A stretch of 64,000 nt of DNA from sequence record SRR20825006_497. One strand, given 5' to 3'. Position numbers and translations under genes: made by a program. This document shows, in pieces, positions 7,563 to 54,695 of this stretch. The notes under the pieces were generated by a model, which was given only the letters and a program-made list of their open reading frames with translations, had not been told where the DNA came from and made no database searches. The first letter of the stretch is position 1, and each line of letters begins with the position of its first letter.

Positions 7563-8146
7563 CAGTTCGCCTCCATCAGATCGGACACTCTGGTCGTGCG
7601 CGGCAGACCCGCAAGTCGGGTTCCGGCGGTGAAATAGAAATCAAGGCCCAGCGGGAACAACCCGGCATTCATTTGAAACGGCGCAAGATCGGGCAGAGCC
7701 AACAGGGCGCTGTCTTTGATCCCCGGCCCGCTCAGGCGCATCCCGTCCTGGCGCAGCGCCTCCATCTCCACGATCACCGTGGTCGAGCGATCCGGGTATT
7801 CCGGGGTGCCGATGGGGAAGGCCGTGATCGGCGAAAGGGCCTCCCATATTCCAAGCGCAAACATCGCGCGCTCTGGACCCACAATCGGCGCGCCGATGTG
7901 AAAGGCGACCCAATCTCGGATGTCCTGCGTGTCATGCGCCCCAGCCAGATAGATCGGTGTCTCCGGGTCACAGAGCGTCAGGATCAGGGTTGCCGCCGCT
8001 TCGGATACGGGTGCTGGGGCCTTGGCGCCCGAAATGTCATGGATCGTTCCGGGCCGCGCCAGCGTTTCAAGAGCAGCGCGAAAGGCGCGCGACGAGTCCT
8101 GTGGTGGGTTGGTGAAACCACCTGAGAGGCTTTGCATGTCCATCAA
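7562..8146 (-). CDS. phnH: C-P lyase complex subunit PhnH
   Basis: FRAALETLARPG, LTLCDPETP, GTPEYPDRSTT, LSGPGI, FPLGLD, GLPRTT. Confidence 0.95.
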   Translation of the reverse strand: MMDMQSLSGGFTNPPQDSSRAFRAALETLARPGTIHDISGAKAPAPVSEAAATLILTLCDPETPIYLAGAHDTQDIRDWVAFHIGAPIVGPERAMFALGIWEALSPITAFPIGTPEYPDRSTTVIVEMEALRQDGMRLSGPGIKDSALLALPDLAPFQMNAGLFPLGLDFYFTAGTRLAGLPRTTRVSDLMEAN

Positions 8147-8622
8147 TCTTCTCCCCGCACCATCGTAAAGAAATCGACCTTTGTGGCGGCTGCTTTTTCG
8201 GCGCGCTTAACGCGCTCTGACGCAAGCCCATCTGCCAATGGCGTCACAATCGTTTCCTGCACAGTGGACGCGTTTGCCCCCTGCATCATCGCATCCACGA
8301 TCGCCGCCTGTTCGGCGTGGCGTGTGTCGCGGCCCTGCACATAGGCGTGGCCGACCTCGCCCGTTTCAAGGCGCAGCGAACAGCGCGTGGCAGTCATTTC
8401 GCCCAGATTAAACGCTGTGCCCGTGCCACCCATACGGCCGCGCACCATCACGCCGCCGATCTCCGGCCGACGCAGCCAGTCAAACGCCGGAAGCGCACCG
8501 TAAGCCGTGATTGCCGCATTCAAATCTTTGGGATTGGACTTTGCCAAAACACTCATCCAAGCCTTTCGTGCGGCGGAATCTGGCGCCTCATCTTGACTGG
8601 GGGTCGGGTTCATTTTGTTCAT
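8143..8622 (-). CDS. phnG: C-P lyase complex subunit PhnG
   Basis: RKAWMSVLA, PEIGGVMVRGRMGGTGTAFNLGEMTATR, AATKVDFFTMVRGED. Confidence 0.95.
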   Translation of the reverse strand: MNKMNPTPSQDEAPDSAARKAWMSVLAKSNPKDLNAAITAYGALPAFDWLRRPEIGGVMVRGRMGGTGTAFNLGEMTATRCSLRLETGEVGHAYVQGRDTRHAEQAAIVDAMMQGANASTVQETIVTPLADGLASERVKRAEKAAATKVDFFTMVRGED

Positions 8623-8670
8623 CTAGACACCTTGCGGATTTGTCTGTTATCCTATACAACTAGACAAATC
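8623..8670. promoter_or_regulatory. Putative PhnF operator region
   Basis: Inverted repeat GATTTGTCT (8637-8645)...AGACAAATC (8662-8670) plus repeated CTA(G/T)AC half-sites at 8623, 8652, 8660, similar to HutC-type GntR operators; between divergent phnG and phnF. Confidence 0.55.
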
Positions 8671-8717
8671 ATCCCTGATCCGCGCCCATACAGCAAGCCC
8701 TAATTCGTGAAATTATT

Positions 8718-9455
8718 ATGACGGAGACCCCCATGCCCCGCACGATGCCCCGCACGCCCGTATGGAAATCCATCGCCGAAACCCTGAGCGAAGAGATCGC
8801 GCGCGGGCATTATAAGCCGGGGGATAAATTGCCAACCGAGGCGGAATTGTCCGCCCGGTTTGGCGTCAATCGGCATACGGTGCGTCACGCCCTGTCCGAT
8901 CTGGGCGAGCGCGGCATCGTGCGTTCAAGGCGTGGCGCGGGGGTGTTTGTGCAAAGCGCACCGGTGGATTATCCGCTCGGCAAACGGGTGCGGTTTCACC
9001 AGAATATCCGCGCCACGGGACGGTTGCCCAACCGCCGGGTGTTGCGCCTTGAAACCCGGCCCTGTGATGCCACTGAGGCCAGTGTTTTGGCACTTTCCCC
9101 CGGAGAAAACGTTTTGATTTATGAAGGCTTATCCCTGTCAGGCGACACGTCCGTCGCGCATTTCATTTCGATTTTCCCGATCACCCGGCTCGCTGGTCTC
9201 GACACCCATTTGACCCAAACCACCTCGGTGACGGAGGGGCTCAAAGCCGTTGGGATCGAAGATTATGTACGGGTCGAAACCCGCGTCAGTGCCGAAAGGA
9301 CCACCACCACTCAGGCGCTGCACTTGGGCCTGCGCGAAGGGGACCCGCTGTTGCACACCGTCAGCCTGAACTCCACGCTCGACGGCATCCCCGTCGAGCG
9401 TGGCCTGACATGGTTTGCCGGAGATCGGGTGACGCTAACTGTCACACCGGACTGA
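8718..9455 (+). CDS. phnF: GntR/HutC-family phosphonate regulator
   Basis: PGDKLPTEAELSARFGVNRHTVRHAL wHTH, RRGAGVFV, UTRA-like C-terminus; divergent from phnG. Confidence 0.93.
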   Translation: MTETPMPRTMPRTPVWKSIAETLSEEIARGHYKPGDKLPTEAELSARFGVNRHTVRHALSDLGERGIVRSRRGAGVFVQSAPVDYPLGKRVRFHQNIRATGRLPNRRVLRLETRPCDATEASVLALSPGENVLIYEGLSLSGDTSVAHFISIFPITRLAGLDTHLTQTTSVTEGLKAVGIEDYVRVETRVSAERTTTTQALHLGLREGDPLLHTVSLNSTLDGIPVERGLTWFAGDRVTLTVTPD

Positions 9456-9482
9456 TCCAAACGTCACGCAGGCGATACAAAG
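9439..9482 (+). promoter_or_regulatory. Pho-box-like 11-bp repeat array upstream of second phnM
   Basis: CTGTCAC(9439)/GACTGAT/ACGTCAC(9461)/GCGATAC(9472) in 11-bp phase. Confidence 0.5.
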
Positions 9483-9536
9483 CCTCTGTATTTATTCCTG
9501 AATTATTAGAAACGTCTTAAGTGGCAGGTGTGAGTT

Positions 9537-10715
9537 ATGGCGATCCTTCCCCCGCTGCGCTTTACGGGCGCAACCCTTCTTCGTGACGGCATATTGCAAC
9601 GCCGTTCGCTCTGTGTCGAACAGGGCCGGATTTCGCGCGGCGCCTTTCCCGAGGTCGATCTGTCGGGCTATCTGATTCTTCCGGGCATCATTGATTTGCA
9701 TGGCGATGCGTTTGAACGCCACATCGCGCCGCGTCCGCGCGCGCCCTTCCCGATCCGCTCGGGCCTCTCCTCTGCCGCACGCGATGCGGCGGCGCATGGG
9801 GTCACGACGGCGTGGTTTGCCCAGTGTTGGAGCTGGGAAGGCGGATTGCGCGGGCCGGACTATGCCGAGGAGTTGCTCGGCGTGTTGCAGGCCTTTGCCC
9901 CAACCGCCCTGATTGATATTCGCCTGCAAATCCGCTGTGAAACCCATATGGTCGACAGTCGGGATCGGCTTTTGGCCGCGATCCGCCGGTTTGGCGTCGA
10001 TTACGTGATTTTCAACAACCACCTGCCCGAAGCGATTGACGTCGCCAAGAAAGACCCGATGGAATTCGCCACATGGGCCAAACGCAGCGGGCGCAGTTCG
10101 GAAGAATTCATCAAGGTTTTGCGCGAGGCCAAGGATCGCAAATCCGAAGTGCCGCGTCACCTTTGCGCGCTGGCCGAGGCCTTTGATGTGCTGGGCGTCA
10201 CCTATGGCAGCCACGATGACCCGGACGCGGAAACCCGCGAAGAATTCCGCCTTTTGGGCGCGCATGTCGCCGAATTTCCGATCTCGGAAAAGGCGGCGGC
10301 TGCTGCCAAGGCGATGAATGACCCGGTTCTGATGGGCGCGCCCAATGTGGCGCGTGGCGGGTCGCAGTCGGGCAACATCTCGGCCCAACGCCTGATCGAA
10401 CGCGGCCTGTGTGACGCGCTGGTCTCGGATTATCATTACCCGGCTTTGGCGGCAGCGGCTTGGGCCTTGGTGGACAAGGGGGTGTTGCCCCTGCCTGCCG
10501 CTTGGGCGATGATTTCGACCAAGCCCGCCGAGATCATGAACCTGTCTGATCGCGGCAATCTTGAATTTGGCAAACGCGCCGATTTCGTGATCATGGATGA
10601 AGAGACCCGCGAGATCGAAGCCACAATCTCAAACGGTCGCATCGCCTATCTGTCGGGGCGGGTCGGAGAACGCCTGGCACGTTCTGGTCGGGATGTGCGG
10701 ATGGCGGCGGAATAG
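9537..10715 (+). CDS. phnM: Second PhnM-family amidohydrolase (diphosphatase paralog)
   Basis: PGIIDLHGDAFERH, GSHDD, AEFP, MGAPNVARGGSQSGN, LVSDYHYP. Confidence 0.88.
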   Translation: MAILPPLRFTGATLLRDGILQRRSLCVEQGRISRGAFPEVDLSGYLILPGIIDLHGDAFERHIAPRPRAPFPIRSGLSSAARDAAAHGVTTAWFAQCWSWEGGLRGPDYAEELLGVLQAFAPTALIDIRLQIRCETHMVDSRDRLLAAIRRFGVDYVIFNNHLPEAIDVAKKDPMEFATWAKRSGRSSEEFIKVLREAKDRKSEVPRHLCALAEAFDVLGVTYGSHDDPDAETREEFRLLGAHVAEFPISEKAAAAAKAMNDPVLMGAPNVARGGSQSGNISAQRLIERGLCDALVSDYHYPALAAAAWALVDKGVLPLPAAWAMISTKPAEIMNLSDRGNLEFGKRADFVIMDEETREIEATISNGRIAYLSGRVGERLARSGRDVRMAAE

Positions 10716-10744
10716 ACCCGTCGCCTGTCCGCCTACCCCTCCGT

Positions 10745-11359
10745 CTATTCGTATTTCTCAAGAAACGCTTCGGCAGGCAGAGCGCGAAAATCGGTGAGCG
10801 CGCGCTTCAGCGCCGCATGGCTCCAATCCCACCACGCCAAGGCCTCCATCCGCTCGGCGATCCCGTCCGGGTAGCGCGCGCGCAGCGGCGTGGCGGGCAC
10901 ACCCGCGACAATCATATAGGGCGCGACATCTTTGGTCACCACCGCACCCGAGGCCACGATGGCCCCATTGCCGATGGTTACCTCGGGTTTGATGATCGCG
11001 CCATGGCCGATCCATGTGTCGTGGCCGATGATCGAGCGCCGGGCAGAGCGCGCGGCAAAGAACGCCGGATCGTCTTCGGCATCGTCCCAATAGTAAGACG
11101 AGCGATAAAGGAAGTGATGCAGGGATGCGTTTTTATAGGGGTGATCGGTGGGGCCGATCCGGGTGAAAGCAGCGATATTCGCAAATTTGCCCAAAGTGGT
11201 GTTGGCGATGTCCGCGTATTGATCGCAATAGGCGTAATCCATGAATTCGGAGTTCAACACCCGCGCGCCCTTGCCAACCTCGCAATAGGCACCAAAGGTC
11301 GACCGGGTCACCTCGGCTCCGTCATGGATAAAGGGGGCGGTGGCACTGAGTTTTGGCAT
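10745..11359 (-). CDS. Hexapeptide-repeat (DapH/DapD/CAT-like) acetyltransferase associated with phn clusters
   Basis: IGHDTWIGHGAIIKPEVTIGNGAIVASGAVVTKDVAPYMIVAGVPA, LAWWDW. Confidence 0.9.
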   Translation of the reverse strand: MPKLSATAPFIHDGAEVTRSTFGAYCEVGKGARVLNSEFMDYAYCDQYADIANTTLGKFANIAAFTRIGPTDHPYKNASLHHFLYRSSYYWDDAEDDPAFFAARSARRSIIGHDTWIGHGAIIKPEVTIGNGAIVASGAVVTKDVAPYMIVAGVPATPLRARYPDGIAERMEALAWWDWSHAALKRALTDFRALPAEAFLEKYE

Positions 11360-11395
11360 GATTTACCTCGTTGAAATCGCGGATGCCTCCGGCGG

Positions 11396-11453
11396 GAGTA
11401 TTTCGGTCACGATAAAGACTGCAAGTGCTGATTTCATTGCAGATCAAATACTC
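11396..11453. repeat. Inverted pair of a short dispersed intergenic repeat (GAGTATTT...AT(G/A)AA)
   Basis: GAGTATTTCGGTCACGATAAAGA at 11396 and an inverted copy TTTCATTGCAGATCAAATACTC ending 11453; a third copy at 59905-59927. Confidence 0.55.
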
Positions 11454-12780
11454 AGTCGCCCTTGATCAATTTGCGCCGCAGCCAGCTTGAGATCGTGTCC
11501 ATCCCCATCACCATCAAGACGATGAGAATGATGTAATAGGTGACCTCTTCCCAATCCTTTTGGGTGATCATGGCTTGGGTCAGCAAAAGCCCGATACCGC
11601 CTCCGGTGATCGCGCCGATGATGGTGGCGGAGCGGGTGTTGGATTCGAGGAAATACAGCACCTGCGAGAGTAGCACGGGGACGATTTGCGGGATCACGCC
11701 GAAACGGTAGCGCTGCATGGGTTTGGCGCCTGTGGAGGCGATGCCTTCGATCTGTTTGCCATCGACGTTCTCCAAGGCCTCGGAAAACAGTTTGCCGAAA
11801 GACCCGGTGTCGGTGAACAGCATCGCCAAAGCGCCCGTCATCGGACCGGGACCAAAGGCACGGGACAAAAGGATGGTCCAGATCAAGCCATCGACGCCGC
11901 GCAGAAAGTCAAACAGCCGCCGCGCCAGCATCCGCACCGCCATAAAGGGCGCAAAGTTTTTGGCCGCCATGAAAGCGAGGGGCAGCGCAACGATAGCCGC
12001 GCCAAAGGTGCCGAGAAAGGCCATCAAGATGGTTTCAAACAGCGCCCATGCGGTCTCGCCATGCCGCCAAATGGCGTTGTTCCAAAAGTCATGCCATGCG
12101 CCTGCGATGTTCGGACGGGTCGGGTCGAGTTGCGGCCCGGTGAGGACCTCCATCAGCGAGTGACCCGAATAAGGGCTATCCAACGTGACCCAGAACAGCT
12201 CCCAGCCGAAGTCATAGACAAAGACCTCGGTACGCGCTTTGGTCAGCGACAGGCGCGCCGCGTCGGTGGTTATGGTCACGCGGGTTTTGGAATAGGAAAT
12301 CCAGTCCGGCAAATCCGCGGCATCAAAATTGAGCGTCACGCCATCGGTTCGGCTTTGCGTCGCCTCAATCAACCCGAACCCCGGCACATTATAGCGCACA
12401 ATGTCGCCGAGGATCTCAATGGTGCCGCCATCATCGAGGGTGATCGAGGCGGCGTCCTCGCCGACCGTGACCCAACCGGGATAGTTGCTGGCGTCATAGG
12501 TGCCCTTGCGTTCGCCCTCCACCGCGACCCCGATTTCGCCAGTCCGGTTGTTGCGCTCGACCACGGTTTTGTAGCTATAAGTGTCCGAAACCAGCGTCAC
12601 CGCGTTATCAAGCCGGGCGCGCTCAGCCAGTCCCATGATGTCAAAGGCGAAGAAAATATAGACGAAATAGCCCAAGACAAAAAGCGGCGCGACAAAGGTC
12701 AAAAGCCGTTTGCGGGCGATCATCGCGGCGGCGCGGTTGTGCATATGCCTCGGATCGTCAGAGGGGGACACAAAGCTCAT
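11452..12780 (-). CDS. phnE: Phosphonate ABC permease with long N-terminal extracytoplasmic extension
   Basis: ETILMAFLGT, GKLFSEALE, ESNTRSATIIGAITGGGIG. Confidence 0.92.
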   Translation of the reverse strand: MSFVSPSDDPRHMHNRAAAMIARKRLLTFVAPLFVLGYFVYIFFAFDIMGLAERARLDNAVTLVSDTYSYKTVVERNNRTGEIGVAVEGERKGTYDASNYPGWVTVGEDAASITLDDGGTIEILGDIVRYNVPGFGLIEATQSRTDGVTLNFDAADLPDWISYSKTRVTITTDAARLSLTKARTEVFVYDFGWELFWVTLDSPYSGHSLMEVLTGPQLDPTRPNIAGAWHDFWNNAIWRHGETAWALFETILMAFLGTFGAAIVALPLAFMAAKNFAPFMAVRMLARRLFDFLRGVDGLIWTILLSRAFGPGPMTGALAMLFTDTGSFGKLFSEALENVDGKQIEGIASTGAKPMQRYRFGVIPQIVPVLLSQVLYFLESNTRSATIIGAITGGGIGLLLTQAMITQKDWEEVTYYIILIVLMVMGMDTISSWLRRKLIKGD

Positions 12781-13652
12781 TTGCCGGCTCCTTTGTCAGA
12801 TCCATAGGTCAGGCGGTTGCGCACATAAGACGAAAGTTGGTCGAAAAACACGATGGTCAGGAACAACAGGATGAACACGGCAGCGGCCTCGTCAAACTTG
12901 CCCTGCCCCCAGGAAATCGCGTTTTTAAGTTCGTAGCCAATGCCGCCCGCGCCGACAAAGCCAAGGATCGCGGAGGCACGAATGTTGATCTCAAAGCGCA
13001 GAAGGGCGTAGGAAAACCAGTTGGGCGCGACCTGTGGGACAAGGCCCAAAAGCATCCGCTGCGGCCAGATCGCGCCGACAGAGGCGAGACCTTCAAGCGG
13101 CTTTTGATCGGCATTTTCATTGACCTCGGAGAACAGCTTGCCCAGCGCCCCGACGGTGTGAAAGGCAATCGCGATGGCCGCAGGCACCGGCCCGCCGCCC
13201 AAAACGAAAATCAATACAAGCGCGATGACAATCTCAGGCACGGCGCGCATCAGGTCCATGATCCGGCGAAACACCGGGATCAAACGCGGCCAAGGCGCGA
13301 GGCCCCGCGTCGCCAGCATCGACAAGAGAATGGCAAAGAATGCACCAAACAGCGTGGCAACTGCCGCGATATTGATGGTCTCAACCAATGCCGGAAGGGC
13401 ATTCTTCAAATGATCCGGCAGGTTGGCGCGTTTGGTCCAGGCCTCGGACATCACCTCGGCGGGGAAATCGAAAATATGCGGCAGGCCGGGCAAAAACCCA
13501 CCGGCATTGCGGTCATTGGCAATGCCAAAGCCGGAGGCCATCAGCAGCACAAAGACCAAAAGCATGATCCCGCCATAGAGACGGCGTTGACGGGTCAGCG
13601 CAAGATAATGAGCGCGCGTCGCGTCCAGGGGCGCAGCGGAGAGATCGGCCAT
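12777..13652 (-). CDS. phnE: Phosphonate ABC permease
   Basis: RAVPEIV, GALGKLFSEVNE, RFEINIRASAILGFVGAGGIG. Confidence 0.93.
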   Translation of the reverse strand: MADLSAAPLDATRAHYLALTRQRRLYGGIMLLVFVLLMASGFGIANDRNAGGFLPGLPHIFDFPAEVMSEAWTKRANLPDHLKNALPALVETINIAAVATLFGAFFAILLSMLATRGLAPWPRLIPVFRRIMDLMRAVPEIVIALVLIFVLGGGPVPAAIAIAFHTVGALGKLFSEVNENADQKPLEGLASVGAIWPQRMLLGLVPQVAPNWFSYALLRFEINIRASAILGFVGAGGIGYELKNAISWGQGKFDEAAAVFILLFLTIVFFDQLSSYVRNRLTYGSDKGAGK

Positions 13653-13668
13653 GTCGGGAGGTCCTTGT

Positions 13669-13699
13669 AAAAAGACCCCGCACCAAAGCGCGGGGTCTT
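13669..13699 (-). terminator. Hairpin between phnD and phnE (terminator/mRNA-stabilising)
   Basis: AAGACCCCGC...GCGGGGTCTT stem, T-run follows on minus strand. Confidence 0.6.
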
Positions 13700-13716
13700 G
13701 GTCAGATCAAATGATC

Positions 13717-14622
13717 TCAGTTGGCTTGCGACAGACGTGCGGCCACGATGGATTCGTAGGCGGCATGGGTGATCGGCTGGAAGCCCAAGGTTTCGCCCGC
13801 AGCCATGCCGTAGGTGCAATCGGCGTCGGTGTTGATCATATTTTCGACCAGCGCGGTCATGGTGGCTTTGACATCAGCCGGCAAAGATTTGCGCAGCACA
13901 ACCGGACCCTCAGGGATCGGTTTGGAGCGCCAGATTTCCACGAAATCGTTCATGTCCACAAGACCCGCGTCCACGGCCTTGCGGAAGGCACCGGAGTTGT
14001 ATCCGTCTTCCCATGCGCCCTGGCCATCGGCCCAGGTCACGCCAGCGTCGATATCGCCATTGTTGACGGCAACGATGGTCTGTTCGTGACCACCGGTGAA
14101 TTTAACCTCACCGAAATAGTCGCCGGACTCCATGGTGATACCGTCTTTGTACTGCGGGATTTCGATGGAGGGGATCAGATAGCCGGAGGTGGAGTTCGGA
14201 TCGCCAAAGCCAAAGCTCTTGCCAGCCATGTCGTCGAGCGAGGTGATGCCAGTCTCTTTGCGGGCAAAGCCGATGGAGTGGTAGCCATAGGAGCCATCAA
14301 GGTTGATTTTCACCAAAACCGGCTCAACAGCCTCTGGGTCTTGCACATAGATCCCCGCGTAGGAGGACGCGCCGAGCCAGGCCATATCGATTGTGCCGCC
14401 CAAAAGGCCCTGCATCACGCCGTTATAATCGGCGGGGGCAAAAAGTTTGACCGGAACGCCAAGGGCCTCTTCGGCATAGGCGCGCAGGCACTCGTTGGAA
14501 TTCAGACGGTCTTGGGCGTTTTCGCCGCCCAAAAGGCCGATGTTGAATTCTTTGATCTCTTGAGCATGCGCCGCGCCGACAAAGGCGGTGGTCGCAAGAA
14601 CAGCAGCAAGCAGGTTTTTCAT
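13717..14622 (-). CDS. phnD: Phosphonate ABC substrate-binding protein
   Basis: Signal peptide MKNLLAAVLATTAFVGAAHA, GLLGGEN, FGDPNSTSGYLIP, FTGGHEQ. Confidence 0.95.
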   Translation of the reverse strand: MKNLLAAVLATTAFVGAAHAQEIKEFNIGLLGGENAQDRLNSNECLRAYAEEALGVPVKLFAPADYNGVMQGLLGGTIDMAWLGASSYAGIYVQDPEAVEPVLVKINLDGSYGYHSIGFARKETGITSLDDMAGKSFGFGDPNSTSGYLIPSIEIPQYKDGITMESGDYFGEVKFTGGHEQTIVAVNNGDIDAGVTWADGQGAWEDGYNSGAFRKAVDAGLVDMNDFVEIWRSKPIPEGPVVLRKSLPADVKATMTALVENMINTDADCTYGMAAGETLGFQPITHAAYESIVAARLSQAN

Positions 14623-14685
14623 CTGTCTCTCCAGGTTGTATGGCCCGCCCAAGGTTCGGTAAGAGGCGCGCCGGGATGAAAGCGG

Positions 14686-15510
14686 TTAGATCGCGACTTC
14701 GGCATTGCGGATTTCGGCCGCTTCAATGTCGTGGTGATCGCGAATTTCGGTGGATGTGGCGGCCTCGGAAAAATCCGCACCCGCGCCATAAATGTCGCGC
14801 GCCACACCGGTTGTGAGCTGTGCGGGGGTGCCGTCAAACACGACGCGCCCGTCACGCATCCCGATGATGCGGTCGCAATAGCGCCGCGCGGTGTCGAGCG
14901 TATGAAGGTTGGCGATGACCATGCGGCCGTCCTCGTCATGGATGCGTCTGAGTGCTTCCATCACGGTTTGGGCATTCATCGGATCGAGCGAGGCGATCGG
15001 TTCATCAGCCAAGATCACTTTCGGGTCTTGCATCAACGCGCGCGCAATCGCGACCCGTTGTTGTTGTCCGCCAGACAGCGCCTCGGCGCGTTTCTCGGCG
15101 TGTTGGGCGATGCCCAGACGGTCGAGAATGTCGATGGCTTGGTGAATGTCGCTCTCGGGATAGAGGTTGAACATCGTCGCCAGGGTCGAGCGGCGGCCCA
15201 ACGTGCCATGCAGCACGTTCGAAACCACATCCATCCGCGGCACAAGGTTGAACTGTTGAAAAATCATCGCGCAGGTCGATTGCCATTCACGCTTGGCCTT
15301 CCCCGCGAGCGGCAACACATTGCGCCCCTCAAAGGCCAAAACACCCTCAGACGCCTCGGTCAGCCGGTTCATCATCCGCAAAAAAGTCGATTTGCCCGCA
15401 CCAGAACGGCCAATGATCCCGATCATCATCGGGCGGTCCACGCGAAAGCTGACGTTGTCCACGGCGAGGTTGCCCCCAAACCGCTTTGTCAGGCCTTTGA
15501 CTTCGAGCAT
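14686..15510 (-). CDS. phnC: Phosphonate ABC ATP-binding protein
   Basis: [48 protein letters not shown]; start at MLEVKGL. Confidence 0.95.
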
Positions 15511-15559
15511 TCTGATCCCCTCATCTCGTTGCGGGGATAAAGCACAGAGTCTGAAACCT

Positions 15560-15592
15560 CTTTGTGACGCTCCGGCAAAAGATTTGTGACAG
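15560..15592 (-). promoter_or_regulatory. Pho-box-like site upstream of phnC
   Basis: Minus strand CTGTCACAAAT/CTTTTGCCGGA/GCGTCACAAAG in 11-bp phase. Confidence 0.55.
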
Positions 15593-15629
15593 CCCCCCTG
15601 CCCCTCTTTTCGCGCCTCAGCGCCAAAAT

Positions 15630-15653
15630 CGCAGATCACGCAGATCACGCAGA
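15630..15653. repeat. 9-bp tandem repeat (CGCAGATCA x2 + CGCAGA)
   Basis: Read directly in the phnC/AbrB intergenic region. Confidence 0.8.
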
Positions 15654-15707
15654 ACCCATGTGCGCAAAAACCGTGCAACTTACCTTGCTCCATGCCCCGA
15701 GCACAGT

Positions 15708-16820
15708 ATGGTGCCCCCAACCGAAAGAGCCGAGGTCGTTACCTTGCCCCAGCCCCTGCCCCCCACACGCCCCGACCCCAAGCGTCTTGCGCTGATCGTG
15801 CTGACCCTGTGCCTCGGTGCCGCGGGCGGCACCGGATTTTATCTGGCACATTTGCCCTTGCCGTGGATGCTTGGGCCGATGTTGGTGATTTTCACCTGCG
15901 TGATGGCGGGCGCGCCGCTTGAGGCGCCAAACGCCTTGCGCCCGATCGTGATCCCGGTGATCGGGGTGATGCTTGGGTCAAGTTTCACCCCCGAGACCTT
16001 TCACCATCTGGCGCGTTGGGGCCTCTCCTTGGCGGGGCTGTCGATCTATCTGGCGATGGCTGCGGCGCTGGTGGTGCCGTTTTACATCAAGGTCGGGCGG
16101 CTTGATCCGATCACCGCGTTTTTCTCCGCCATGCCCGGCGGCCTCAATGAGATGACGGTGATTGGCGGCGCGCTCGGCGGCGATGAAAAGCGGATCATTC
16201 TGGCCCATGCCGGGCGGATCGTCGTGTCGATCTCGATCATCGCGCTGTGGTTTCGGGTGATCCTGGGCTATGAGGTCCGTGGCGTGTCCTTGGCCTCGGA
16301 CCCGGCCACGTCGATGACGGCTTTAAGTGCCTTGATCCTGATCGGCTGTGCGGTTTTGGGCGCATGGATTGGCGGCAAACTCCGCCTGCCTGCACCCGGA
16401 CTTTTGGGGCCGCTCTTGTTGTCAGCGGCCGCGCATATTTCCGGGCTGACCCATTCCTCGCCCCCGGCGTTAATCATCGTGGCAGCACAGGTGATCCTTG
16501 GTTCGTCCATGGGCGCGCGGTTCAAAGGCGCGGGCGGGCGGCTTGTGGCCCAAACGCTGTTGCTCACTTTGGGGGGCACGCTTTTGATGATGGCGCTATC
16601 TCTGGCGGTGGCCATGCTGTTTCACACTTTGTTTGGGCAAACCGTGGAACAAGTGCTTTTGGCCTATGCGCCGGGGGGCTTAACCGAAATGTCCTTGGTG
16701 GCTTTGGCGATGAATGCTGAAGTCGCTTATATCTCGATCCATCACCTCGTGCGGATCGTGATCATCGTGGCCGTGGCACCAACACTCTTGCCCAAAATCG
16801 CAAAACGGATCGGGTATTGA
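15708..16820 (+). CDS. AbrB-family duplicated membrane protein
   Basis: [49 protein letters not shown]; start uncertain (ATG 15708 or TTG 15744). Confidence 0.85.
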
Positions 16821-16833
16821 TCCCGATCCGTTT
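16803..16833. terminator. Hairpin between convergent genes
   Basis: AAACGGATCGGG...CCCGATCCGTTT 12-bp perfect stem. Confidence 0.7.
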
Positions 16834-16855: not shown

Positions 16856-18724
16856 TCACGCGGCGGCGGATTGGCTCAGCCGGGCTTTGACCTCTTCGTA
16901 CATTTCGAAATCAGGTCCAAAGGCCTTTTCGAGATTTTTCAAATCCTTGGCAGACAGGGTTTCAATCAGCTCAGAGGATTTGGTTTTGTGGCCGAGAGTG
17001 CGACGGGTGTCAACGATCTCCCCCGCAGCTTCTGTACCAAAACAGGTGCCAACGATTTTCTCCATCGCCGCATCCATGTCTTCAACCAGCCCGATGTAAT
17101 CATAGTCAATCAAATCATAGCTGGTCTCTTTGCGCTGAAGCCGCCAATGCCGATCCAGATCACGCGCGCCCTCATCCTCGGCCAAAAGCGCGATGAATTG
17201 TTTGAGGGTGATATTGCTGTTCTCGTCGCGCCCAAGATAGCGCATCAGGCGGCCTTTTTCTTTTTCATTGCCGTCGATCTTATCGGCCCAGGCCGACACG
17301 GTGCGGCTGATCGGGTCGCGGATCACGGTGAATTTGAACACATCCGGGTCCGCCAAAGCGTTCATGATCATCTGTTCGTTCAAGGCTTTCAAACCGCTCA
17401 TCACCAGGTTGGCGGGTGGGGAGTGGACCGAATTCAGCGTTTCCATCACGCCATTTCCCTCGTCGCCCCGCGCCCGTGCCATTTGCCGGATCAAGGTGGC
17501 CATCACCGTCGAACAGGCCGCTTTTGAGGTCTTCATAAACAAAAACTTCGATCCCGGCGGGGTAAAGGCCGACAGGTTCGCGGTTTGCAGGAAATGCCGG
17601 CGATGGATGTAATTCGCCATCAGATCGGAGGCGGAAACACCGCCCACGTCGACCGGAACGAACAGGTCGCTGGCATGGTCGCGAATACGGTCGCGGCACG
17701 CGCGGACCAGTTTGTTATCGACCTTAAATTCTTTGGCAACCTGACCAAAAGATTTATCGCCTTTGAGAGCCTCAAGACCAATCCGCGCCATAAAGGCCGG
17801 GTCGCCAATGACCAAACCCTGCGCGGGGTCGGAGGGTTTCGCCTTGTTGTCTTTGGCGGCGGTGTCTTTGACCGCACTGTCATCGAGCTGCGGTTTGTGG
17901 CGGGTCATGATCGGCGCTTTGGCCGGATCAATGTCATGCTTGCGCAACAGCGAGGCGAGGAAGGATTTCGGGTGCGGTGCGCCGCCCTCTTTCTCGATCA
18001 AACGCATCCGCATCCGGCGACCATAGAGGTGCACAGAGGTGGTTTTGTCGGTCACATAGGGCGACACATCGACGTCGCGTTTCAACATGATCCGGCGGTC
18101 TTTGAAGGTGAACGGATAGAGCACCTCCTGTGGGAAAGCGTATTTTTCTTCGCCGGTTTGGTGCAAGAAATGGCTGACCGCATGTGGCCCCCAGACGCCC
18201 CATGGTTGTTCAGAGGCGTGGACCGGCGTGCCCTCGGCCTTTTTCTGTTCCAACTCGGCTTGGTATTTCTCGCCGTAATAACTTGGGATCGAAAACTCGT
18301 CGGAGGTGAACTCCAACAGCGCCTTCAACGCATCACTGTCTTTCGGCAGACCCAGCACACCACCGTTGATGTGTTTGTCGCTTTCCCAACCAAAATAATG
18401 CCCGGTCTCGGTCTCAAACGGGCGCATGCAATAGGCGTCGGTATCGGCCCAGATCACATTGTCGCTTTTTTCCAACATTTTATAGCGGAAGAGATCGGAA
18501 TGCAGCGCAGGCGAGCCGGTGCGTTCATGTTGCAGGAAATTCGTCTGCGGCAGGAATTCGTTGGCATCGCCAAGCTCGATCCCCTCGGGGACGTTTTCAA
18601 GCGGCCCGTAATGATACAGAACGACCTTATGCCCTGCATCGACAAAGGATTTCAGACAAAGCTGTTCGAGGTAACTCAGCGGACCTTCCATCCACAACGC
18701 ACCGATCACTGGTAACTGTGCCAT
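16856..18724 (-). CDS. Fusion: DxD glycosyltransferase (GT32-like) + HTH-like linker + Sulfotransfer_2 domain
   Basis: N-term LSYLEQLCLKSF, SDLFRY, IWADTD, WGVWGP; C-term KTSKAACST (5'-PSB), FTVIRDPISRTVS (3'-PB), DRHWRLQ, YDYIG. Confidence 0.85.
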   Translation of the reverse strand: MAQLPVIGALWMEGPLSYLEQLCLKSFVDAGHKVVLYHYGPLENVPEGIELGDANEFLPQTNFLQHERTGSPALHSDLFRYKMLEKSDNVIWADTDAYCMRPFETETGHYFGWESDKHINGGVLGLPKDSDALKALLEFTSDEFSIPSYYGEKYQAELEQKKAEGTPVHASEQPWGVWGPHAVSHFLHQTGEEKYAFPQEVLYPFTFKDRRIMLKRDVDVSPYVTDKTTSVHLYGRRMRMRLIEKEGGAPHPKSFLASLLRKHDIDPAKAPIMTRHKPQLDDSAVKDTAAKDNKAKPSDPAQGLVIGDPAFMARIGLEALKGDKSFGQVAKEFKVDNKLVRACRDRIRDHASDLFVPVDVGGVSASDLMANYIHRRHFLQTANLSAFTPPGSKFLFMKTSKAACSTVMATLIRQMARARGDEGNGVMETLNSVHSPPANLVMSGLKALNEQMIMNALADPDVFKFTVIRDPISRTVSAWADKIDGNEKEKGRLMRYLGRDENSNITLKQFIALLAEDEGARDLDRHWRLQRKETSYDLIDYDYIGLVEDMDAAMEKIVGTCFGTEAAGEIVDTRRTLGHKTKSSELIETLSAKDLKNLEKAFGPDFEMYEEVKARLSQSAAA

Positions 18725-19103
18725 TTTTCCCTTCCAGAGCAAAAGACTATCGACTGTGACGCATATCGCAGAAGCATCCTAAAATACAGTTGAAAACAGC
18801 ATTGTTTCGAATGGGGAAACAACTGCGGCACCGCCGCACCACTTCAACCGATTGCGACACAAATGCGCACTCTGAGTGCGAAACACAGCTCTGGACCGAC
18901 ACGGACCCAAGACCTTTGCTCCCGCGCGCTTGACTTGGCCGGGACCATATGAGACCACAAAGGCCAGAAAAACAGGGCCGAAACGGTCGAACTTGGCAGG
19001 CATCTGGCACAGTTTGGACATCAGGCTCCGTCACCGTGTCGAATGACAGAGTCGCACAAGAGTTATGCGCGGACCATGCGCCGCAGCTACGGGTAGGTTA
19101 AGG

Positions 19104-20120
19104 GTGAACACACTCGCGATCACATGTCTGCGCGACGAGGGGCCTTGGCTTCTGGATTGGCTCGCCCATCATAAAGCCGCCGGTTTTACCCATTTTCTCA
19201 TCGCCTCACATGACTGCACCGATGGCAGCGCTCAGATGCTCGAAGCCTTGGACGCGAGCGGGATCATCACCCATGTGCCTTTTGTGCCCAAGGGCGAAAA
19301 ATCGGTGCAATGGCAGGCGATGAAACTCCTGTCCAAACACAAACGCTACCGGAGCGCCGATCTGGCGCTGTTTTTTGATGTCGATGAGTATCTGGTGATG
19401 CAAGACGCCAGGTCTGTCGCGGAATTGATGCCAGAGACGGCAGACGCGATGCCGCTGCGCTGGCATCTGTTTGGCAACAACGGGTTTGGCACATGGGATG
19501 ATGTGCCGGTGCCCGAGCGCTTTACCATGGCTGCGCCCGACGGCATCACCTTGCCCCTGGCACATTTTTTTAAAACGCTGCACCGGCCCAAGACCTTTCG
19601 TGACTTGGGTGTGCATCGCCCGAAAAATCCCAAGGACCAAGATCTGCCAAATTGGGTGTCCGCGAGTGGCGCCGCCTTGCCCACAGCCTTTGCCATGGCC
19701 CAAGCCCGGATCAACCTGTTCGGCGTGCCGCATGAAAAAGAGCGCGCTTGGCTCAATCATTACTCCGTGCGGTCGATCGAAGAATTCGTGCTCAAATCCG
19801 CGCGCGGCCTGCCCAATCATATGCAAAAGCCGATCGGCGCGGGCTATTGGGCCGAACGGAATTTTAACGTCACCTCAGACACACGCATCGCCGCCATGCG
19901 GCCCGTGGCCCATGCTGTGCGTGCCGAAATGGCGGCGTTTGAGCCATTGCATAAGGCCAGTGTCGCCGCCCATCGCGCGCGGCTCAAAACCTTGTTGTCG
20001 CGACGCGATGTGGTGGAATTGATGTGGCAACTGACCCTCATGGGCGGCTCCACCCCGCCCGGCCCAACGCAATTGGCCGCGCATCTGGCGCGGCTCAAAA
20101 CCCTGACACCAGAGGCCTGA
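19104..20120 (+). CDS. Glycosyltransferase family 2 (Glyco_tranf_2_4-like)
   Basis: TCLRDEGPWLLDWLAHH, DCTDGS, FFDVDEY, LGVHRP, LNHYSVRS; GTG start assumed at 19104. Confidence 0.88.
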   Translation: MNTLAITCLRDEGPWLLDWLAHHKAAGFTHFLIASHDCTDGSAQMLEALDASGIITHVPFVPKGEKSVQWQAMKLLSKHKRYRSADLALFFDVDEYLVMQDARSVAELMPETADAMPLRWHLFGNNGFGTWDDVPVPERFTMAAPDGITLPLAHFFKTLHRPKTFRDLGVHRPKNPKDQDLPNWVSASGAALPTAFAMAQARINLFGVPHEKERAWLNHYSVRSIEEFVLKSARGLPNHMQKPIGAGYWAERNFNVTSDTRIAAMRPVAHAVRAEMAAFEPLHKASVAAHRARLKTLLSRRDVVELMWQLTLMGGSTPPGPTQLAAHLARLKTLTPEA

Positions 20121-20128
20121 CCCAAGGC

Positions 20129-22375
20129 ATGAGCCCCTCCTCCCCCATGACCCACCTCATCACACGCACCCTGACCCACCGCACACTTGGCCCCGCCACG
20201 CTTTTGGCAGCCATCGGGCTTGAAAGTGGCAAGGCCGAATTGTTTTTCAGCCGCAGCACTCAGATGAGCGAGGCGGTGGCACAAAACCTGTTGCTGGATG
20301 CTGAATTGAAATCCGTCGGCGATGCGCCCTGGATCACCGGCACTGTCCCACCCGAGGGCATCCGCGCCTATTTCCAAGGGGCGCTTTGCGACATCACCCC
20401 GATCACCCCCGAGCCCGCGCATATGGCCGGGCGCAACGTGGCGCTCTCCACCCGCAATGGCGAGAGCGCGGAGGTGGTTTTGGAGTGGCTGCGCTATCAC
20501 GCGGTGCATCAGGGCATGAACGGGGCGGTGATTTTGGACCGGGCACGTCCCGGCGCGGATGGTGGGTTTGCCGAGGCTTTGGCCAAGGGGCTACCGGAGC
20601 TGAGTGGCGATATGGCGGTGGTTTTGGTGAATTGTGATGTGCCGCTGGGCCATCCCCATTTGCCCTCTGAAACCCATCCCTATGTCACCCCCGGCGCGCC
20701 CGGCAAGGACCGGATGGAGGTGCCCGAGGCCGATCCGTGGAGCGCGCCTTTGGCGGATGTCTTGGTCTATGAAATCCTGCGGCACCTGTATTTGCATCAG
20801 GCCCGCGCCGTGGCCAACATCGAGGTCTATGACCTGATCCCGCCCGCCCCCGAAGGCTCCGTGTTCGATCTGGCACAAGAGGCCGAACATGGGGTTGTGC
20901 AACTGATCGGCCAGCAATGTTATCCATGGCGGGTGCGCGAGGGCGACACGGTACAGTTTGGCGATCACGTTTGCGTCCAGTTCGATGAGAAAAAGCGCCG
21001 GGGGCGCTGGTGTGTGGCCCCCGCCAAACTGCCCGAGGGGGCGGTGTTTCGGCTGGTTCGGGTCGGCGGGGTCGAACCAACCACGCGCTACGGGTTTTAC
21101 CGCTACATGGCGCTGCGCCACGTCGCGCCCACCGTGTCGCGGATCGTGCCGAAAGCCTCGCTTATTCATGCGCAGGCGCTCATTGACATGGCCGCCTCGG
21201 AATGGGGTCACAAACCGATTTTGATGCCCGAAGAAAAGGTGGCCAAACCGCCTCGCGGCGACAATTCGGTGGCGATTGTCACCTGTATGAAAAACGAAGG
21301 CCCGTTCATTTTGGAATGGATCGCCTATCACCGCGCCATCGGGGTCGAGGGATTTTTGGTCTACACCAATGATTGCACGGATGGCACCGACACGTTTTTG
21401 GACCTGTTGCAAGCCAAGGGCTATGTCCAACACCGCGACAATAAGTTCCACGACACGGGCCTCAAACCACAGCACCACGCCTTGCAAAGTGCCGAGAACG
21501 AAGAGGTGGTGACGGGCGCGGATTGGGCGATTTCGATGGATGTGGATGAGTTCATCAACATCAAAGTCGGGGATGGCACGATGAGCGCGCTGTTTGATGT
21601 GGTGCCCGATGCCAACCTGATTTCCTGCACATGGCGGCTGTTCGGCAATGCTGATGTGCATGAGTATGAGGACGCATTCCTCTTGGCGCAGTTTGATCGC
21701 TGTGCGCCGGAGTTTGCCAACAAACCGCATCAGGCCTGGGGCTTTAAAACCCTGTTTAAAAATGTCGGCCTGTTCAAAAAACTCGGCGTGCATCGGCCCA
21801 AGGGGCTGAAACCGCAAATCTGGGACAAAATCCGCTGGTACAACGGCTCGGCCAAGCCGATGCCGAAAAACGAGTTTCGCAACGCTTGGCGTTCGAATGC
21901 CTCGACCTATGGCTATGACGTGGTGCAGCTCAATCACTATGCCGTGCGCTCGGCCGAAAGCTTTTTGGTCAAACGCGACCGGGGCCGGGTGAACCATGTG
22001 GACCGCGATCAGGGGCTGGCCTATTGGTTCCGCATGAACAACAATTACGAGCAAGAAACTTCGATTCAGCGGATGATCCCGCAGTTGCAGGTGGAATTTG
22101 ACCGCCTGATGGCCGACCCTGACATCCGCGCTCAGCATGAGGCCTGTGTCAAAGCGCACCGCGAGAAAATCGACGCGCTGCGTGCCACAGAAAACTACGC
22201 CGCGTTTTACCAGGAGTTGACTGGCTGGCGGATGGAAAAACTGGCGCGGATGCATCGGCATTTTGGCGCGAATGTCTTTTTGAATGGGCCACAAACCGTC
22301 CCTGATGAAATCGTCGCCAAAGACCCAGACGAGGATTTCTTTTTCACCGTGGACAAAGGGGAGACGGTGCATTGA
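20129..22375 (+). CDS. Large glycosyltransferase family 2 protein with tandem GT-like domains
   Basis: C-terminal TCMKNEGPFILEWIAYH, DCTDGT, MDVDEF, LGVHRP, LNHYAVRS; degenerate N-terminal copy TRNGESAEVVLEWLRYH. Confidence 0.88.
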   Translation: MSPSSPMTHLITRTLTHRTLGPATLLAAIGLESGKAELFFSRSTQMSEAVAQNLLLDAELKSVGDAPWITGTVPPEGIRAYFQGALCDITPITPEPAHMAGRNVALSTRNGESAEVVLEWLRYHAVHQGMNGAVILDRARPGADGGFAEALAKGLPELSGDMAVVLVNCDVPLGHPHLPSETHPYVTPGAPGKDRMEVPEADPWSAPLADVLVYEILRHLYLHQARAVANIEVYDLIPPAPEGSVFDLAQEAEHGVVQLIGQQCYPWRVREGDTVQFGDHVCVQFDEKKRRGRWCVAPAKLPEGAVFRLVRVGGVEPTTRYGFYRYMALRHVAPTVSRIVPKASLIHAQALIDMAASEWGHKPILMPEEKVAKPPRGDNSVAIVTCMKNEGPFILEWIAYHRAIGVEGFLVYTNDCTDGTDTFLDLLQAKGYVQHRDNKFHDTGLKPQHHALQSAENEEVVTGADWAISMDVDEFINIKVGDGTMSALFDVVPDANLISCTWRLFGNADVHEYEDAFLLAQFDRCAPEFANKPHQAWGFKTLFKNVGLFKKLGVHRPKGLKPQIWDKIRWYNGSAKPMPKNEFRNAWRSNASTYGYDVVQLNHYAVRSAESFLVKRDRGRVNHVDRDQGLAYWFRMNNNYEQETSIQRMIPQLQVEFDRLMADPDIRAQHEACVKAHREKIDALRATENYAAFYQELTGWRMEKLARMHRHFGANVFLNGPQTVPDEIVAKDPDEDFFFTVDKGETVH

Positions 22376-23307
22376 CCGAGACCGATCAAACCACTGATCA
22401 ACCCCCTGTGCGCAAGCGGGTTCATTTGCATATTGGCCTTCATTTTGCCGGGACCACCCGAATCGTCGAGGGTTTGCGGCAAAATTCGCAAGGCTTTGCC
22501 GAACGCGACATTCGCACACCGCCAGCACGTCTCTATCGACGGGCGATGACCGAACTTTTGGAGCGTCTGGACGGTTTACCACCGATTGAAGCGGAAGAGA
22601 TCGCGCTTTTGGACGAAATTCTTCAGGGCAACGCCGCCAAGACGGTGATCATGGCCGACGCCAACTGGGCCTCGCCCTTGGCCGAGGCGCTTCATGCAGA
22701 TCGGCTGTACCCCGACATTGGAACGCGGGTTGCCCCAATTGCCGAACTGTTTGAAAGCTCGGATCTGCGCCTCAGCCTGGCCCTGCGCAACCCGGCAGTG
22801 TTTGCCCAAAACCTACAGGATTCCGGCAAGGCGCGGGGGGCGACGAGTTCGTTTTTGCGCAGCGTCCAGCCGGAAAACCTACGCTGGCACGACACGGTGG
22901 AGGCCCTGCGCAACGCCTTGCCCAACGTGCCCTTGACGCTGTGGTGCGAAGAGGACACGCCGCTGATCTGGCCGCGGGTGATGCGCCAGATCGCAGGCCT
23001 GCCCAACGACGCCAAATTGCGCGGCAGTTTCGCCGCTTTGCGCGATCTGATCCAACCGGAGGGGTTGAAACGGCTTCAGGTGTTTTTGACCAAACATCCG
23101 CCCGAAACCGACGCCCAATATGAACGCACGGTTTTGGCATTCTTGGATAAATACGGCAAAGAAGACGCGCTTGATGAGCCCTGTGATTTGCCGGGTTGGG
23201 ACGCTGGCGTGATCGATATGGTCACGCAGCATTACGAAGAAGACATCGCGAAACTGTCCGCCCGCGATGACATCACATTCCTATTGCCTGCGACCATTGC
23301 AGGCTAA
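22372..23307 (+). CDS. Conserved hypothetical protein, degenerate P-loop/sulfotransferase-like fold
   Basis: LHIGLHFAGTTRI, LALRNPA, LTLWCEEDTPLIW; TTGA overlap with upstream GT. Confidence 0.75.
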   Translation: MTETDQTTDQPPVRKRVHLHIGLHFAGTTRIVEGLRQNSQGFAERDIRTPPARLYRRAMTELLERLDGLPPIEAEEIALLDEILQGNAAKTVIMADANWASPLAEALHADRLYPDIGTRVAPIAELFESSDLRLSLALRNPAVFAQNLQDSGKARGATSSFLRSVQPENLRWHDTVEALRNALPNVPLTLWCEEDTPLIWPRVMRQIAGLPNDAKLRGSFAALRDLIQPEGLKRLQVFLTKHPPETDAQYERTVLAFLDKYGKEDALDEPCDLPGWDAGVIDMVTQHYEEDIAKLSARDDITFLLPATIAG

Positions 23308-50826: not shown

Positions 50827-51432
50827 ATGACCAACTCCACGTCCCCGCTATCGCCCCGCAAAACACCGCGACAAGCACGCTCCAAGGCCACGGTTCATGC
50901 GATCCTTGAGGCGGCGGCTCGCATTTTGGAAACCCAAGGCGCAGACGCGGTGACCACAAATGCGGTGGCAGATCGCGCGGGCGTGTCTGTTGGATCTCTC
51001 TATCAATATTTCCCCTCAAAAGAGGCGATTTTCGCCGAGCTGATCCGACAGATACGCGCCCAGATGCGCGACGATATTTTTCGAGCGATGGATTTTGTGG
51101 TTGGAAAGAGCCTGTCCTTTGCCATGGCGCGGCTGGTTCGGGCGGTGATCCACCACCATGTGCATCGCGCGCATCGGGCAGACGCCCTTGAACATTTAGA
51201 AGCGCAATTGCCACCCGACCCGGACAGTTTGACCATGATGTCCCAAACCCGTGCCCGTTTGGCGCTGTGCCTGACCCAGCATAAAGTGCCGCAACCGGAG
51301 CAAGCCGCAGGCGACATTTTGAACCTCATCATTGGCATGGCCCATCCGGCACTTCATGGCGGGGAGACGGATTTTGACTCCTTGGCGCGGCGGATTGATC
51401 CGGCGGTTTTGGGGTATTTGGGGCGAATGTGA
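50827..51432 (+). CDS. TetR/AcrR-family regulator
   Basis: RKTPRQARSKATVHAILEAA, TTNAVADRAGVSVGSLYQYFPSKEAI. Confidence 0.92.
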   Translation: MTNSTSPLSPRKTPRQARSKATVHAILEAAARILETQGADAVTTNAVADRAGVSVGSLYQYFPSKEAIFAELIRQIRAQMRDDIFRAMDFVVGKSLSFAMARLVRAVIHHHVHRAHRADALEHLEAQLPPDPDSLTMMSQTRARLALCLTQHKVPQPEQAAGDILNLIIGMAHPALHGGETDFDSLARRIDPAVLGYLGRM

Positions 51433-51715
51433 CAAGTTCTTAATGCGCACCCTCAAAGTATGTGCATTTTTGCAAAAACCCCTTGATATGTGCGTATTTA
51501 TGAAAAATTAGCCCAAACCGCCTAACACTCACGCGAAATAACGATAATATCGCTAAATTGTGATCTGCATTTTTGCACAACACAATAGATAAAACCTGTA
51601 TGTTTGTTCCCATTTAAACATTTCAAACCAAGCTCTATATCCATTTCATCGAGACGCGCAAAAACACACAGACAGCGCGTCCCCCTAAATGAAACGCTGA
51701 TAAAGGACTTCTATC

Positions 51716-52057: not shown

Positions 52058-52087
52058 TCTCCGCGCCCACAGCAGGGCCCAGACAAA

Positions 52088-52124
52088 ATAAACCCCCGCC
52101 GATGCGAGTCGGCGGGGGTTTTAT
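52088..52124. terminator. Bidirectional terminator
   Basis: AAACCCCCGCCGA...TCGGCGGGGGTTTT. Confidence 0.8.
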
Positions 52125-52154
52125 GTCTCAATTATACGTCGCACTTAAGTGGGT

Positions 52155-54685: not shown

Positions 54686-54695
54686 GGAAGACCCC

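Follow-up and report, generated by a model that had tools for sequence, protein, structure and literature searches.

Evidence suggesting that part of an IS3-family transposase became a working part of a glycosyltransferase in the Rhodobacteraceae

We used sequence, structure and phylogenetic comparisons to study a gene in a 64,000-nucleotide stretch of DNA from sequence record SRR20825006_497 (the window, always meant at its full length), in which a glycosyltransferase (GT), a helix-turn-helix (HTH) segment and a sulfotransferase share one reading frame. Our results suggest that a part of a transposase, the N-terminal domain of OrfA from an insertion sequence (IS) of the IS3 family, became a working part of a bacterial sugar-building enzyme. 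The gene and its parts are listed below with the evidence for each (aa, amino acids; ORF, open reading frame; pLDDT, predicted local distance difference test; PSB and PB, phosphosulfate- and phosphate-binding motifs).

16856..18724, minus strand: whole gene, GT, linker, IS3-derived HTH and sulfotransferase; 622 aa (P0001), ATG at 18724, stop at 16856-16858
17906..18724, minus strand: glycosyltransferase domain of GT-A fold, GT32/Gb3_synth-like, aa 1-273; from fold matches, the homolog P0130 and the tree
18437..18445, minus strand: DxD motif, D94-T-D96; from sequence, with W-x-D-x-D in 84 of 88 GT-HTH ORFs
17807..17905, minus strand: flexible Lys/Ala/Asp/Pro linker, aa 274-306; pLDDT below 50, putative site of the GT swap, with identity switching across it
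17660..17803, minus strand: putatively domesticated IS3 OrfA three-helix domain (H+HTH, a helix plus the HTH), aa 308-355, 48 aa; from profile searches, fold and tree
17627..17659, minus strand: junction of 11 aa; in relatives, the stop codon of the GT-HTH gene and the start of the sulfotransferase fall here
16859..17626, minus strand: Sulfotransfer_2 domain, aa 367-622; from Pfam, fold and motifs, with the 5'-PSB motif at 17507-17533 and the 3'-PB motif at 17294-17320

This is the layout that a first-pass annotation of the same DNA had described: a DxD glycosyltransferase, a Lys/Ala/Asp linker, an HTH segment and a Sulfotransfer_2 domain with both motifs for 3'-phosphoadenosine-5'-phosphosulfate (PAPS). 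IWADTD corresponds to aa 91-96, SDLFRY is also present, the segment PAFM...SDLF lies exactly at 17660-17800, and the PAPS motifs are KTSKAACST (aa 398-406) and RDPISRTVS (aa 469-477). The sole Pfam family found in the protein is Sulfotransfer_2, at aa 389-610 (E 4.7e-19, 70 bits against a cut-off of 22). A full-length AlphaFold2 model built from 30 sequences (mean pLDDT 81; predicted template modeling score 0.48) comprises a GT-A-like N-terminal domain, a disordered linker (pLDDT below 50 at aa 275-306), a three-helix unit at aa 309-354 and a sulfotransferase-like domain. That faulty assembly joined two separate genes is a reading whose probability we put at practically nil: the genes are indeed separate in most relatives, but the nearest genome (G001) encodes an identical protein, G022 and G032 encode proteins 99% and 98% identical to it, both without internal stops, the three genomes share the fusion with synonymous divergence, and P0004 carries the same fusion at 72% identity, with a junction of 11 residues as in the window. 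Given these identical or near-identical stop-free copies, we consider the fusion real and an artefact refuted. Homologs of the protein carry the names Celeribacter and Pacificibacter.

The first-pass annotation had recognized in the HTH segment the pattern of IS3-family OrfA proteins. Single-sequence searches of Pfam, NCBIfam and the PDB with the segment gave no significant match (the best in NCBIfam, IS66 TnpA, has E 0.12); eL40 matches at E 0.4-0.9 were taken as chance, and Foldseek with the HTH model returned no match at E≤0.001. The Pfam family that the annotation had named, HTH_Tnp_1 (gathering cut-off 24.1 bits), matched neither the segment alone nor any of 22 orthologous segments, but a profile built from these 22 segments did recover transposase homology. 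Searched against 1.84 billion representative sequences, this forward profile gave 288 matches at E≤0.001, with a best OrfA E value of 8e-8. Among the best 150 are 136 OrfA-like proteins, 11 GT tails, one probable chimera (P0128) and two acyl-carrier repeat proteins (P0143 and P0238), which were removed as false positives before the OrfA count; the match lies near the N-terminus in 123 of the 136. A Pfam scan of 68 of the 150 found HTH_Tnp_1 in 49 of 56 OrfA-like proteins, and six of the seven that lack it carry, like the window segment, a Cys in place of the OrfA Trp. Standard annotation misses the HTH because this Trp-to-Cys change drops the score below the Pfam cut-off, and among the GT tails only the Trp-bearing P0184 passes it (27.1 versus 24.1 bits). 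Plasmid relatives of one OrfA-like match, and some matches of the Trp-bearing GT tail P0134, are annotated as IS3 family transposases.

In the reciprocal direction, a profile of 103 OrfA sequences was run on 1237 six-frame segments of the window, and its sole significant match is the HTH segment (E 3.4e-14). Against this profile, the median score of the 88 domesticated copies is 47 bits, and reversed copies reach at most 8. As the OrfA set was taken from the forward search, this test is not fully independent. In an independent check of five genomes, each with one GT-linked HTH copy, the profile matched the GT locus and seven places that Pfam also marks as HTH_Tnp_1. The segment aligns with OrfA proteins without gaps over a 48-column core, with up to 22 of 48 residues identical (46%), and its isolated AlphaFold2 model (pLDDT 91; helices 5-17, 22-29 and 33-51) has the three-helix H+HTH fold, the bundle found at the N-terminus of IS3 OrfA and OrfAB proteins such as those of IS911 and IS2. 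For IS2, passages of PMC3219604 describe this bundle with its conserved Trp. The model matches HTH domains at VIA Z scores of 5-6.3, with top rows that are mostly HTH, and these scores do not discriminate among HTH families. Shigella TnpE (2rn7), an IS3-family OrfA, reaches Z 6.0 (root-mean-square deviation [rmsd] 2.9, 51 aligned) and is tied with other HTHs.

The failure of fold scores to separate HTH families, the absence of HTH_Tnp_1 from all 22 segments, and DUF1153 clusters at ranks 2-3 of an Atlas feature search (0.91) would each suit a cellular origin, from DUF1153 or a similar family, or a convergent likeness to OrfA. We nevertheless regard such an origin as very improbable: in five genomes, all carrying DUF1153, the profile did not match DUF1153 at E≤0.01 and matched the GT locus and IS OrfA, and this specificity, together with the gap-free OrfA identity and the score of P0184, largely refutes it. 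On the strength of the forward and reciprocal profile searches, where the likeness is far beyond chance, the HTH segment derives from the N-terminus of an IS3-family OrfA, and we consider this origin well supported. Compared to OrfA, the window HTH differs in that (i) it stands C-terminally on an enzyme, as a single, vertically kept copy; (ii) it lacks the leucine zipper, frameshift site, OrfB and inverted repeats; and (iii) its basic arm and the His, Gln and Trp are replaced, with Cys343 standing for the Trp. As the first-pass annotation had also seen, no IS ends or OrfB are adjacent: no terminal inverted repeats were found flanking the segment, and no rve domain over the cut-off lies near the gene in G001, where the nearest match, below the cut-off, is 24.6 kb off. 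We note in passing P0136 (308 aa), which begins with an OrfA-like HTH, again with Cys in place of Trp; it also has a hydrophobic stretch, its C-terminus is unrelated, and it may represent another capture, made independently.

The idea that the domain was captured in frame and then kept fits its distribution. In the genus of the window, GT and HTH occur together at a syntenic, orthologous locus in 26 of 33 genomes. Three carry the full fusion with the sulfotransferase, in seven the sulfotransferase is a gene of its own that comes next, and 23 of the 26 have stand-alone GTs, one of these fused to a methyltransferase. A family survey of 401 genomes, about one per genus, found the GT in 181 and, among the matches listed (79 weaker ones are not), matches running through the HTH in at least 21 genomes (20 genera); there was no match in 24 genomes outside the family. 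In a set of 80 named loci, enriched by the query, the HTH is present in 75, including loci of Shimia, Tateyamaria, Sulfitobacter, Nereida, Palleronia, Rhodovulum and Amylibacter. Judged by this distribution, the HTH is old, and stand-alone GT proteins of about 20 genera normally end in it. In an HTH tree of 51 columns, all 88 domesticated copies fall on one side of the 50 OrfA rows (support 83), a grouping consistent with a single capture without proving one. Estimated from 13 of 28 sister pairs (15 were left out as saturated), the HTH has a ratio of nonsynonymous to synonymous substitution rates (dN/dS) of 0.061, with 0.028-0.093 from a bootstrap over pairs; the corresponding values are 0.042 in the GT and 0.142 in the linker. 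For the pair L001 versus L003 from the window's own lineage, the proportions of nonsynonymous and synonymous differences in the HTH are 0.000 and 0.45. By these estimates, the HTH is held under strong purifying selection at an orthologous locus.

Some loci stand apart. L108 is probably mis-binned, since its bin bears the label Pirellulales and the locus itself clusters closely with Rhodosalinus (99). Two GT-HTH genes are broken in the GT part, L133 by a stop and L176 by a frame change. The 354-aa non-GT protein P0128, which ends in an HTH, was rejected as evidence of shuffling: its HTH has the same letters as that of L107 from Shimia thalassica, and it is probably a chimeric assembly.

These findings bear on a further proposal of the first-pass annotation, that the HTH is the scar of the event that fused the two enzymes; on this reading it would be a non-functional remnant of an IS insertion that joined their genes. 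The position of the HTH between both enzymes in the window protein is what such a scar would leave, but the HTH ends stand-alone GTs in most of the genus and beyond it, its dN/dS is low, no IS remains were found nearby, and the sulfotransferase begins directly behind the GT-HTH stop in 20 of 21 distinct split loci with both genes, in the same frame in 10. The stand-alone proteins, the selection and the split loci refute this reading, which we consider extremely improbable. The GT family is joined variously with GT2 domains, methyltransferases, an FkbM domain and a hydrolase-like domain. Since the sulfotransferase gene abuts the stop in split loci and the GT family is so widely shuffled, the GT-sulfotransferase fusion is, as far as locus comparison can tell, a late, ordinary join. 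P0010 and L152 are clade-B fusions (see below) with other junctions and decayed HTHs. Long fusions also occur in these loci (L175 of G241, L167-L174, L184, L185), of the kind GT+GT2+GT2 or GT+GT+GT2+hydrolase-like, with up to 1417 aa, and frames in the family survey reach 1746 aa.

The catalytic domain of the window protein has a history different from that of its HTH. A GT tree of 141 rows, made by a quick method, has two clades that we starred: clade B, with the HTH in 85 of 91 rows (one labelled by eye), and clade A, mostly GT-methyltransferase fusions, with the HTH in 11 of 47 rows, namely the window protein and its close kin. Monophyly of the HTH-bearing GTs is rejected (approximately unbiased test, p 3e-32, 26 rows). 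The window GT, of the clade-A type, is 65-83% identical to GT-methyltransferase proteins and 40-53% identical to L011, whereas its HTH is 64% identical to that of L011 and groups with it at support 93, so that identity switches from one set of relatives to the other across the linker. From this conflict in trees and identities we conclude that the catalytic domain was exchanged for a paralogue while the HTH stayed. We are highly confident in the joint reading of an OrfA-domain capture by a GT32-like GT, inheritance under purifying selection, a GT swap and a sulfotransferase join. In detail, an IS3 element would have left solely the three-helix N-terminal domain of OrfA at the C-terminus of a GT32-like GT in a Rhodobacteraceae surface-glycan cluster; the HTH would then have passed down with the GT gene through about 20 genera; later, within the genus of the window, a paralogue would have taken the place of the catalytic domain while the HTH was retained; and the adjacent sulfotransferase gene would have joined through stop-codon loss or a small indel.

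What the domain does now is a separate matter, for which we compared the 88 domesticated copies with the 136 OrfA proteins. The hydrophobic core is common to both. Among the residues that changed, Arg0 of OrfA (90%) is Ala or variable, Lys8 (96%) is Gln, Arg or Cys, Lys20 is Ala, His32 (91%) is Glu or Asp (93%), Gln35 (75%) is Phe (80%) and Trp39 of helix 3 (89%) is Cys in 78 of 88 copies (88%); the Gln/Trp pair has become Phe/Cys in 70 of 88. The Trp loss seen by the first-pass annotation thus holds for the window and most relatives, and 8 of the 88 copies retain the Trp. Net charge falls from +4.8 to +0.6, and that of the basic arm from +3.3 to -0.3. Newly conserved are Asp4 (93%), Arg27 (89%), Leu30 (72%), Glu/Asp32 and Lys/Arg37 (99%), the window copy differing by Lys at positions 27 and 30. 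The leucine zipper is gone, because 76 of 88 proteins stop within 10 residues after the LF motif (in the window, the sulfotransferase begins 11 residues on), and its loss makes dimerization, once suggested for the segment, unlikely in the OrfA manner. Several Shimia loci (L147, L151, L153, L154, L156-L159) have an OrfA-like Gln/Leu35 and Trp39 amid Phe/Cys forms, by paired reversion or recombination; nested as they are among Cys forms, they were rejected as the ancestral state.

The HTH fold itself is intact, and Arg27, Lys33, Lys/Arg37 and Arg40 are conserved, with a net charge of +1.2 on the recognition helix. The HTH might therefore still bind DNA, at a new site or nonspecifically, as an enzyme-regulator or as an anchor of the GT to the nucleoid. 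Trp loss alone says little on this point, since in IS2, according to passages of PMC3219604, Arg13 and Arg50 mutants lose DNA binding and a Trp mutant keeps it. Against DNA binding stand the lost basic arm, the replaced His32 and Gln35, the near-neutral charge and the missing leucine zipper, which in IS911, as described in part of PMC2909936, multimerizes OrfAB while the HTH binds DNA. Moreover, a search of 25 upstream regions for k-mers and spaced palindromes found no shared palindrome and no operator common across genera. The sole conserved upstream element, present in most loci of the genus, is:

18929..18955, plus strand: CTTGAC-N15-TGAGAC

Neither L004 nor L009 has this element, nor do upstream regions from other genera, and five genomes contain 0-2 copies each; genus-limited and promoter-like, it was rejected as an operator of the HTH and is, judged by the housekeeping promoter consensus, probably the promoter of the divergent GT2 genes. 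DNA reading is disfavoured by these replacements (basic arm, Lys8, Lys20, His32, Gln35, Trp39) and the lowered charge, and we consider it unlikely; the module proposed by the first-pass annotation keeps its fold, with residues of its presumed DNA-contact face replaced. If it did bind DNA, this would be a glycosyltransferase doubling as a transposon-derived regulator.

The enzyme domains and the neighbouring genes point to glycan synthesis. The GT domain matches GT-A enzymes in VIA (best Z 12.9, rmsd 3.5, 181 aligned) and Foldseek; Gb3_synth is not matched by P0001, is over the cut-off in the homolog P0130 alone and is below it in 5 of 15 proteins scanned, and Atlas feature leads at 0.87-0.88 include "Alpha 1,4-glycosyltransferase" and "galactosyltransferase Lgt5." We call the domain GT32-like because of its fold, the DxD motif, the Gb3_synth match in P0130 and these Atlas leads under 0.9. 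It shares GT-A fold and DxD with GT32 alpha-1,4-glycosyltransferases (Lgt5, CgtD, A4GALT; Gb3_synth, Gly_transf_sug) and, unlike them, has no Pfam GT match of its own and carries an HTH and a sulfotransferase. The sulfotransferase domain matches heparan sulfate (HS) 6-O-sulfotransferase (VIA Z 10.8, rmsd 4.0, 204 aligned) and HS 2-O-sulfotransferase (Z 10.5, rmsd 3.6, 190 aligned). With Sulfotransfer_2 enzymes (HS2ST, chondroitin sulfotransferases and, as a bacterial functional analogue, KpsS) it has in common the HS-sulfotransferase fold, the PSB lysine and the PB serine; unlike HS2ST-type enzymes, it appears soluble, with no membrane anchor evident in the sequence, and is fused behind a GT-HTH. 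The PSB and PB motifs were checked across 25 distinct sulfotransferase ORFs, and the lysine and serine described for sulfotransferases in part of PMC11625862 are both present in the window protein. GT32 is listed as retaining in part of PMC4202792. From these domain families, the protein would add a sugar from a nucleoside diphosphate sugar (DxD, retaining) and sulfate the glycan with PAPS, and the product is probably a sulfated surface glycan. Around the gene lie the following features:

16803..16833, no strand: perfect 12-bp inverted repeat between the gene and a convergent AbrB-family gene, a probable shared terminator of the two
19065..20120, plus strand: divergent GT2-like gene (Glyco_tranf_2_4; Pfam), in the same glycan cluster
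20024..22375, plus strand: large GT2-like gene, about 750 aa, true start probably later; the commonest neighbour and a candidate partner
22372..23307, plus strand: 311-aa gene that recurs in the cluster, with no Pfam or NCBIfam match

The N-terminus of the 311-aa protein resembles a degenerate PAPS-binding loop. Directly downstream of the fusion gene, at 7562-16820, are the AbrB-family membrane gene and putative phosphonate uptake and carbon-phosphorus (C-P) lyase-like genes, named from their sequence; this linkage is kept in part of the genus. An alpha/beta-hydrolase-like family (about 305 aa; L134:7787-8692, tandem copies in L093-L099) repeatedly trails or fuses with these GTs; it is absent at the window locus, and a paralogue lies inside urease clusters (L161-L164). 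At 51001-57000, the window has a G+C content of 49-55% versus about 59% elsewhere, possibly acquired DNA.

In our proposed explanation, the HTH no longer reads DNA and would be a small docking or assembly module that, on its flexible tether, holds the GT to a partner in a cytosolic glycan-synthesis complex; candidates are the large GT2 neighbour, a tailoring enzyme or another copy of itself. We infer this role at about even chances. It is in line with the fate of the HTH in clade-B rows fused to a downstream enzyme, where it is clipped, decayed or lost in 9 of 9, whereas 82 of 84 stand-alone copies are complete: this decay fits a tether made redundant by covalent linkage. Several observations weigh against the docking role. 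The clipping may also fit mere position beside a stop codon; the HTH is intact and constrained in the window fusion (L001-L003) and in P0004; and in clipped copies the helix-turn-helix motif is still there, along with several Lys/Arg residues, as would equally suit binding to a nucleic acid or a polyanion. No neighbour is universal: the large GT2 gene lies within 6 kb in 62 of 75 HTH loci, for the hydrolase-like gene, all 5 genomes tested have only paralogues of 31-41% identity, and locus surveys led us to reject both the sulfotransferase and the hydrolase-like gene as universal partners. The HTH is an accessory domain, since some stand-alone GTs lack it altogether (L178-L183); four of these six lie beside the same partner families. 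The positions that we take to touch DNA were assigned from general HTH knowledge.

With the GT as the one companion that is never missing, and with similar selection on both, the domain might instead act within the protein or on its substrate, capping or stabilizing the GT, or gripping an anionic glycan, a lipid carrier or a membrane surface; that the glycans of the cluster are probably sulfated, given the sulfotransferase, and methylated would suit such a grip. The HTH, however, outlasted the original GT, which gave way to a paralogue 40-53% identical to it, its linker is variable in length and disordered in the window protein, and many GTs of both clades lack it, so that we find this reading rather doubtful. 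A docking tag, if that is what the HTH is, would have been valuable enough to survive the exchange of the catalytic domain that precedes it.

Host-transposase fusions and exaptation are well documented, mainly in eukaryotes, with FHY3/FAR1 and CENP-B as examples in the parts of PMC2910039 and PMC8700633 that bear on them. As in these cases, the DNA-binding domain of a transposase appears fixed in a host protein under purifying selection; unlike them, the host is bacterial, the partner is a glycan enzyme and not a chromatin or transcription protein, and the DNA-reading face appears rewritten rather than kept. SETMAR is a further fusion of this type. In bacteria, RAYT is a domesticated transposon protein, and TldR repressors are reportedly IS-encoded TnpB proteins that were co-opted. 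To our knowledge, bacterial domestication has concerned whole proteins that still act on nucleic acids, as TldR and RAYT do, whereas the present case is a 48-aa fragment on a metabolic enzyme. A search of the open literature, with subscription papers and supplements outside its scope, turned up neither a description of the window protein nor any bacterial enzyme on which an IS3 HTH is fixed; the Celeribacter ulvan cluster, as covered in part of PMC13770419, is a different locus.

What is new here is thus the IS3 HTH fragment on a bacterial glycan enzyme, a domain-level capture that can be traced through its donor family, Trp-bearing relatives, selection signal and later swap. As the HTH is missed by standard annotation, similar captures may be overlooked elsewhere. 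The system offers a small, testable model of a DNA-binding fold changing its ligand, and it draws attention to a glycan cluster of the Rhodobacteraceae, an abundant marine family, that is uncharacterised and whose domains are heavily shuffled. There, and we see the chances for and against as balanced, a DNA-binding domain of IS3 may have turned into a portable docking tag that organizes an as yet unreported pathway for a sulfated or methylated surface glycan.

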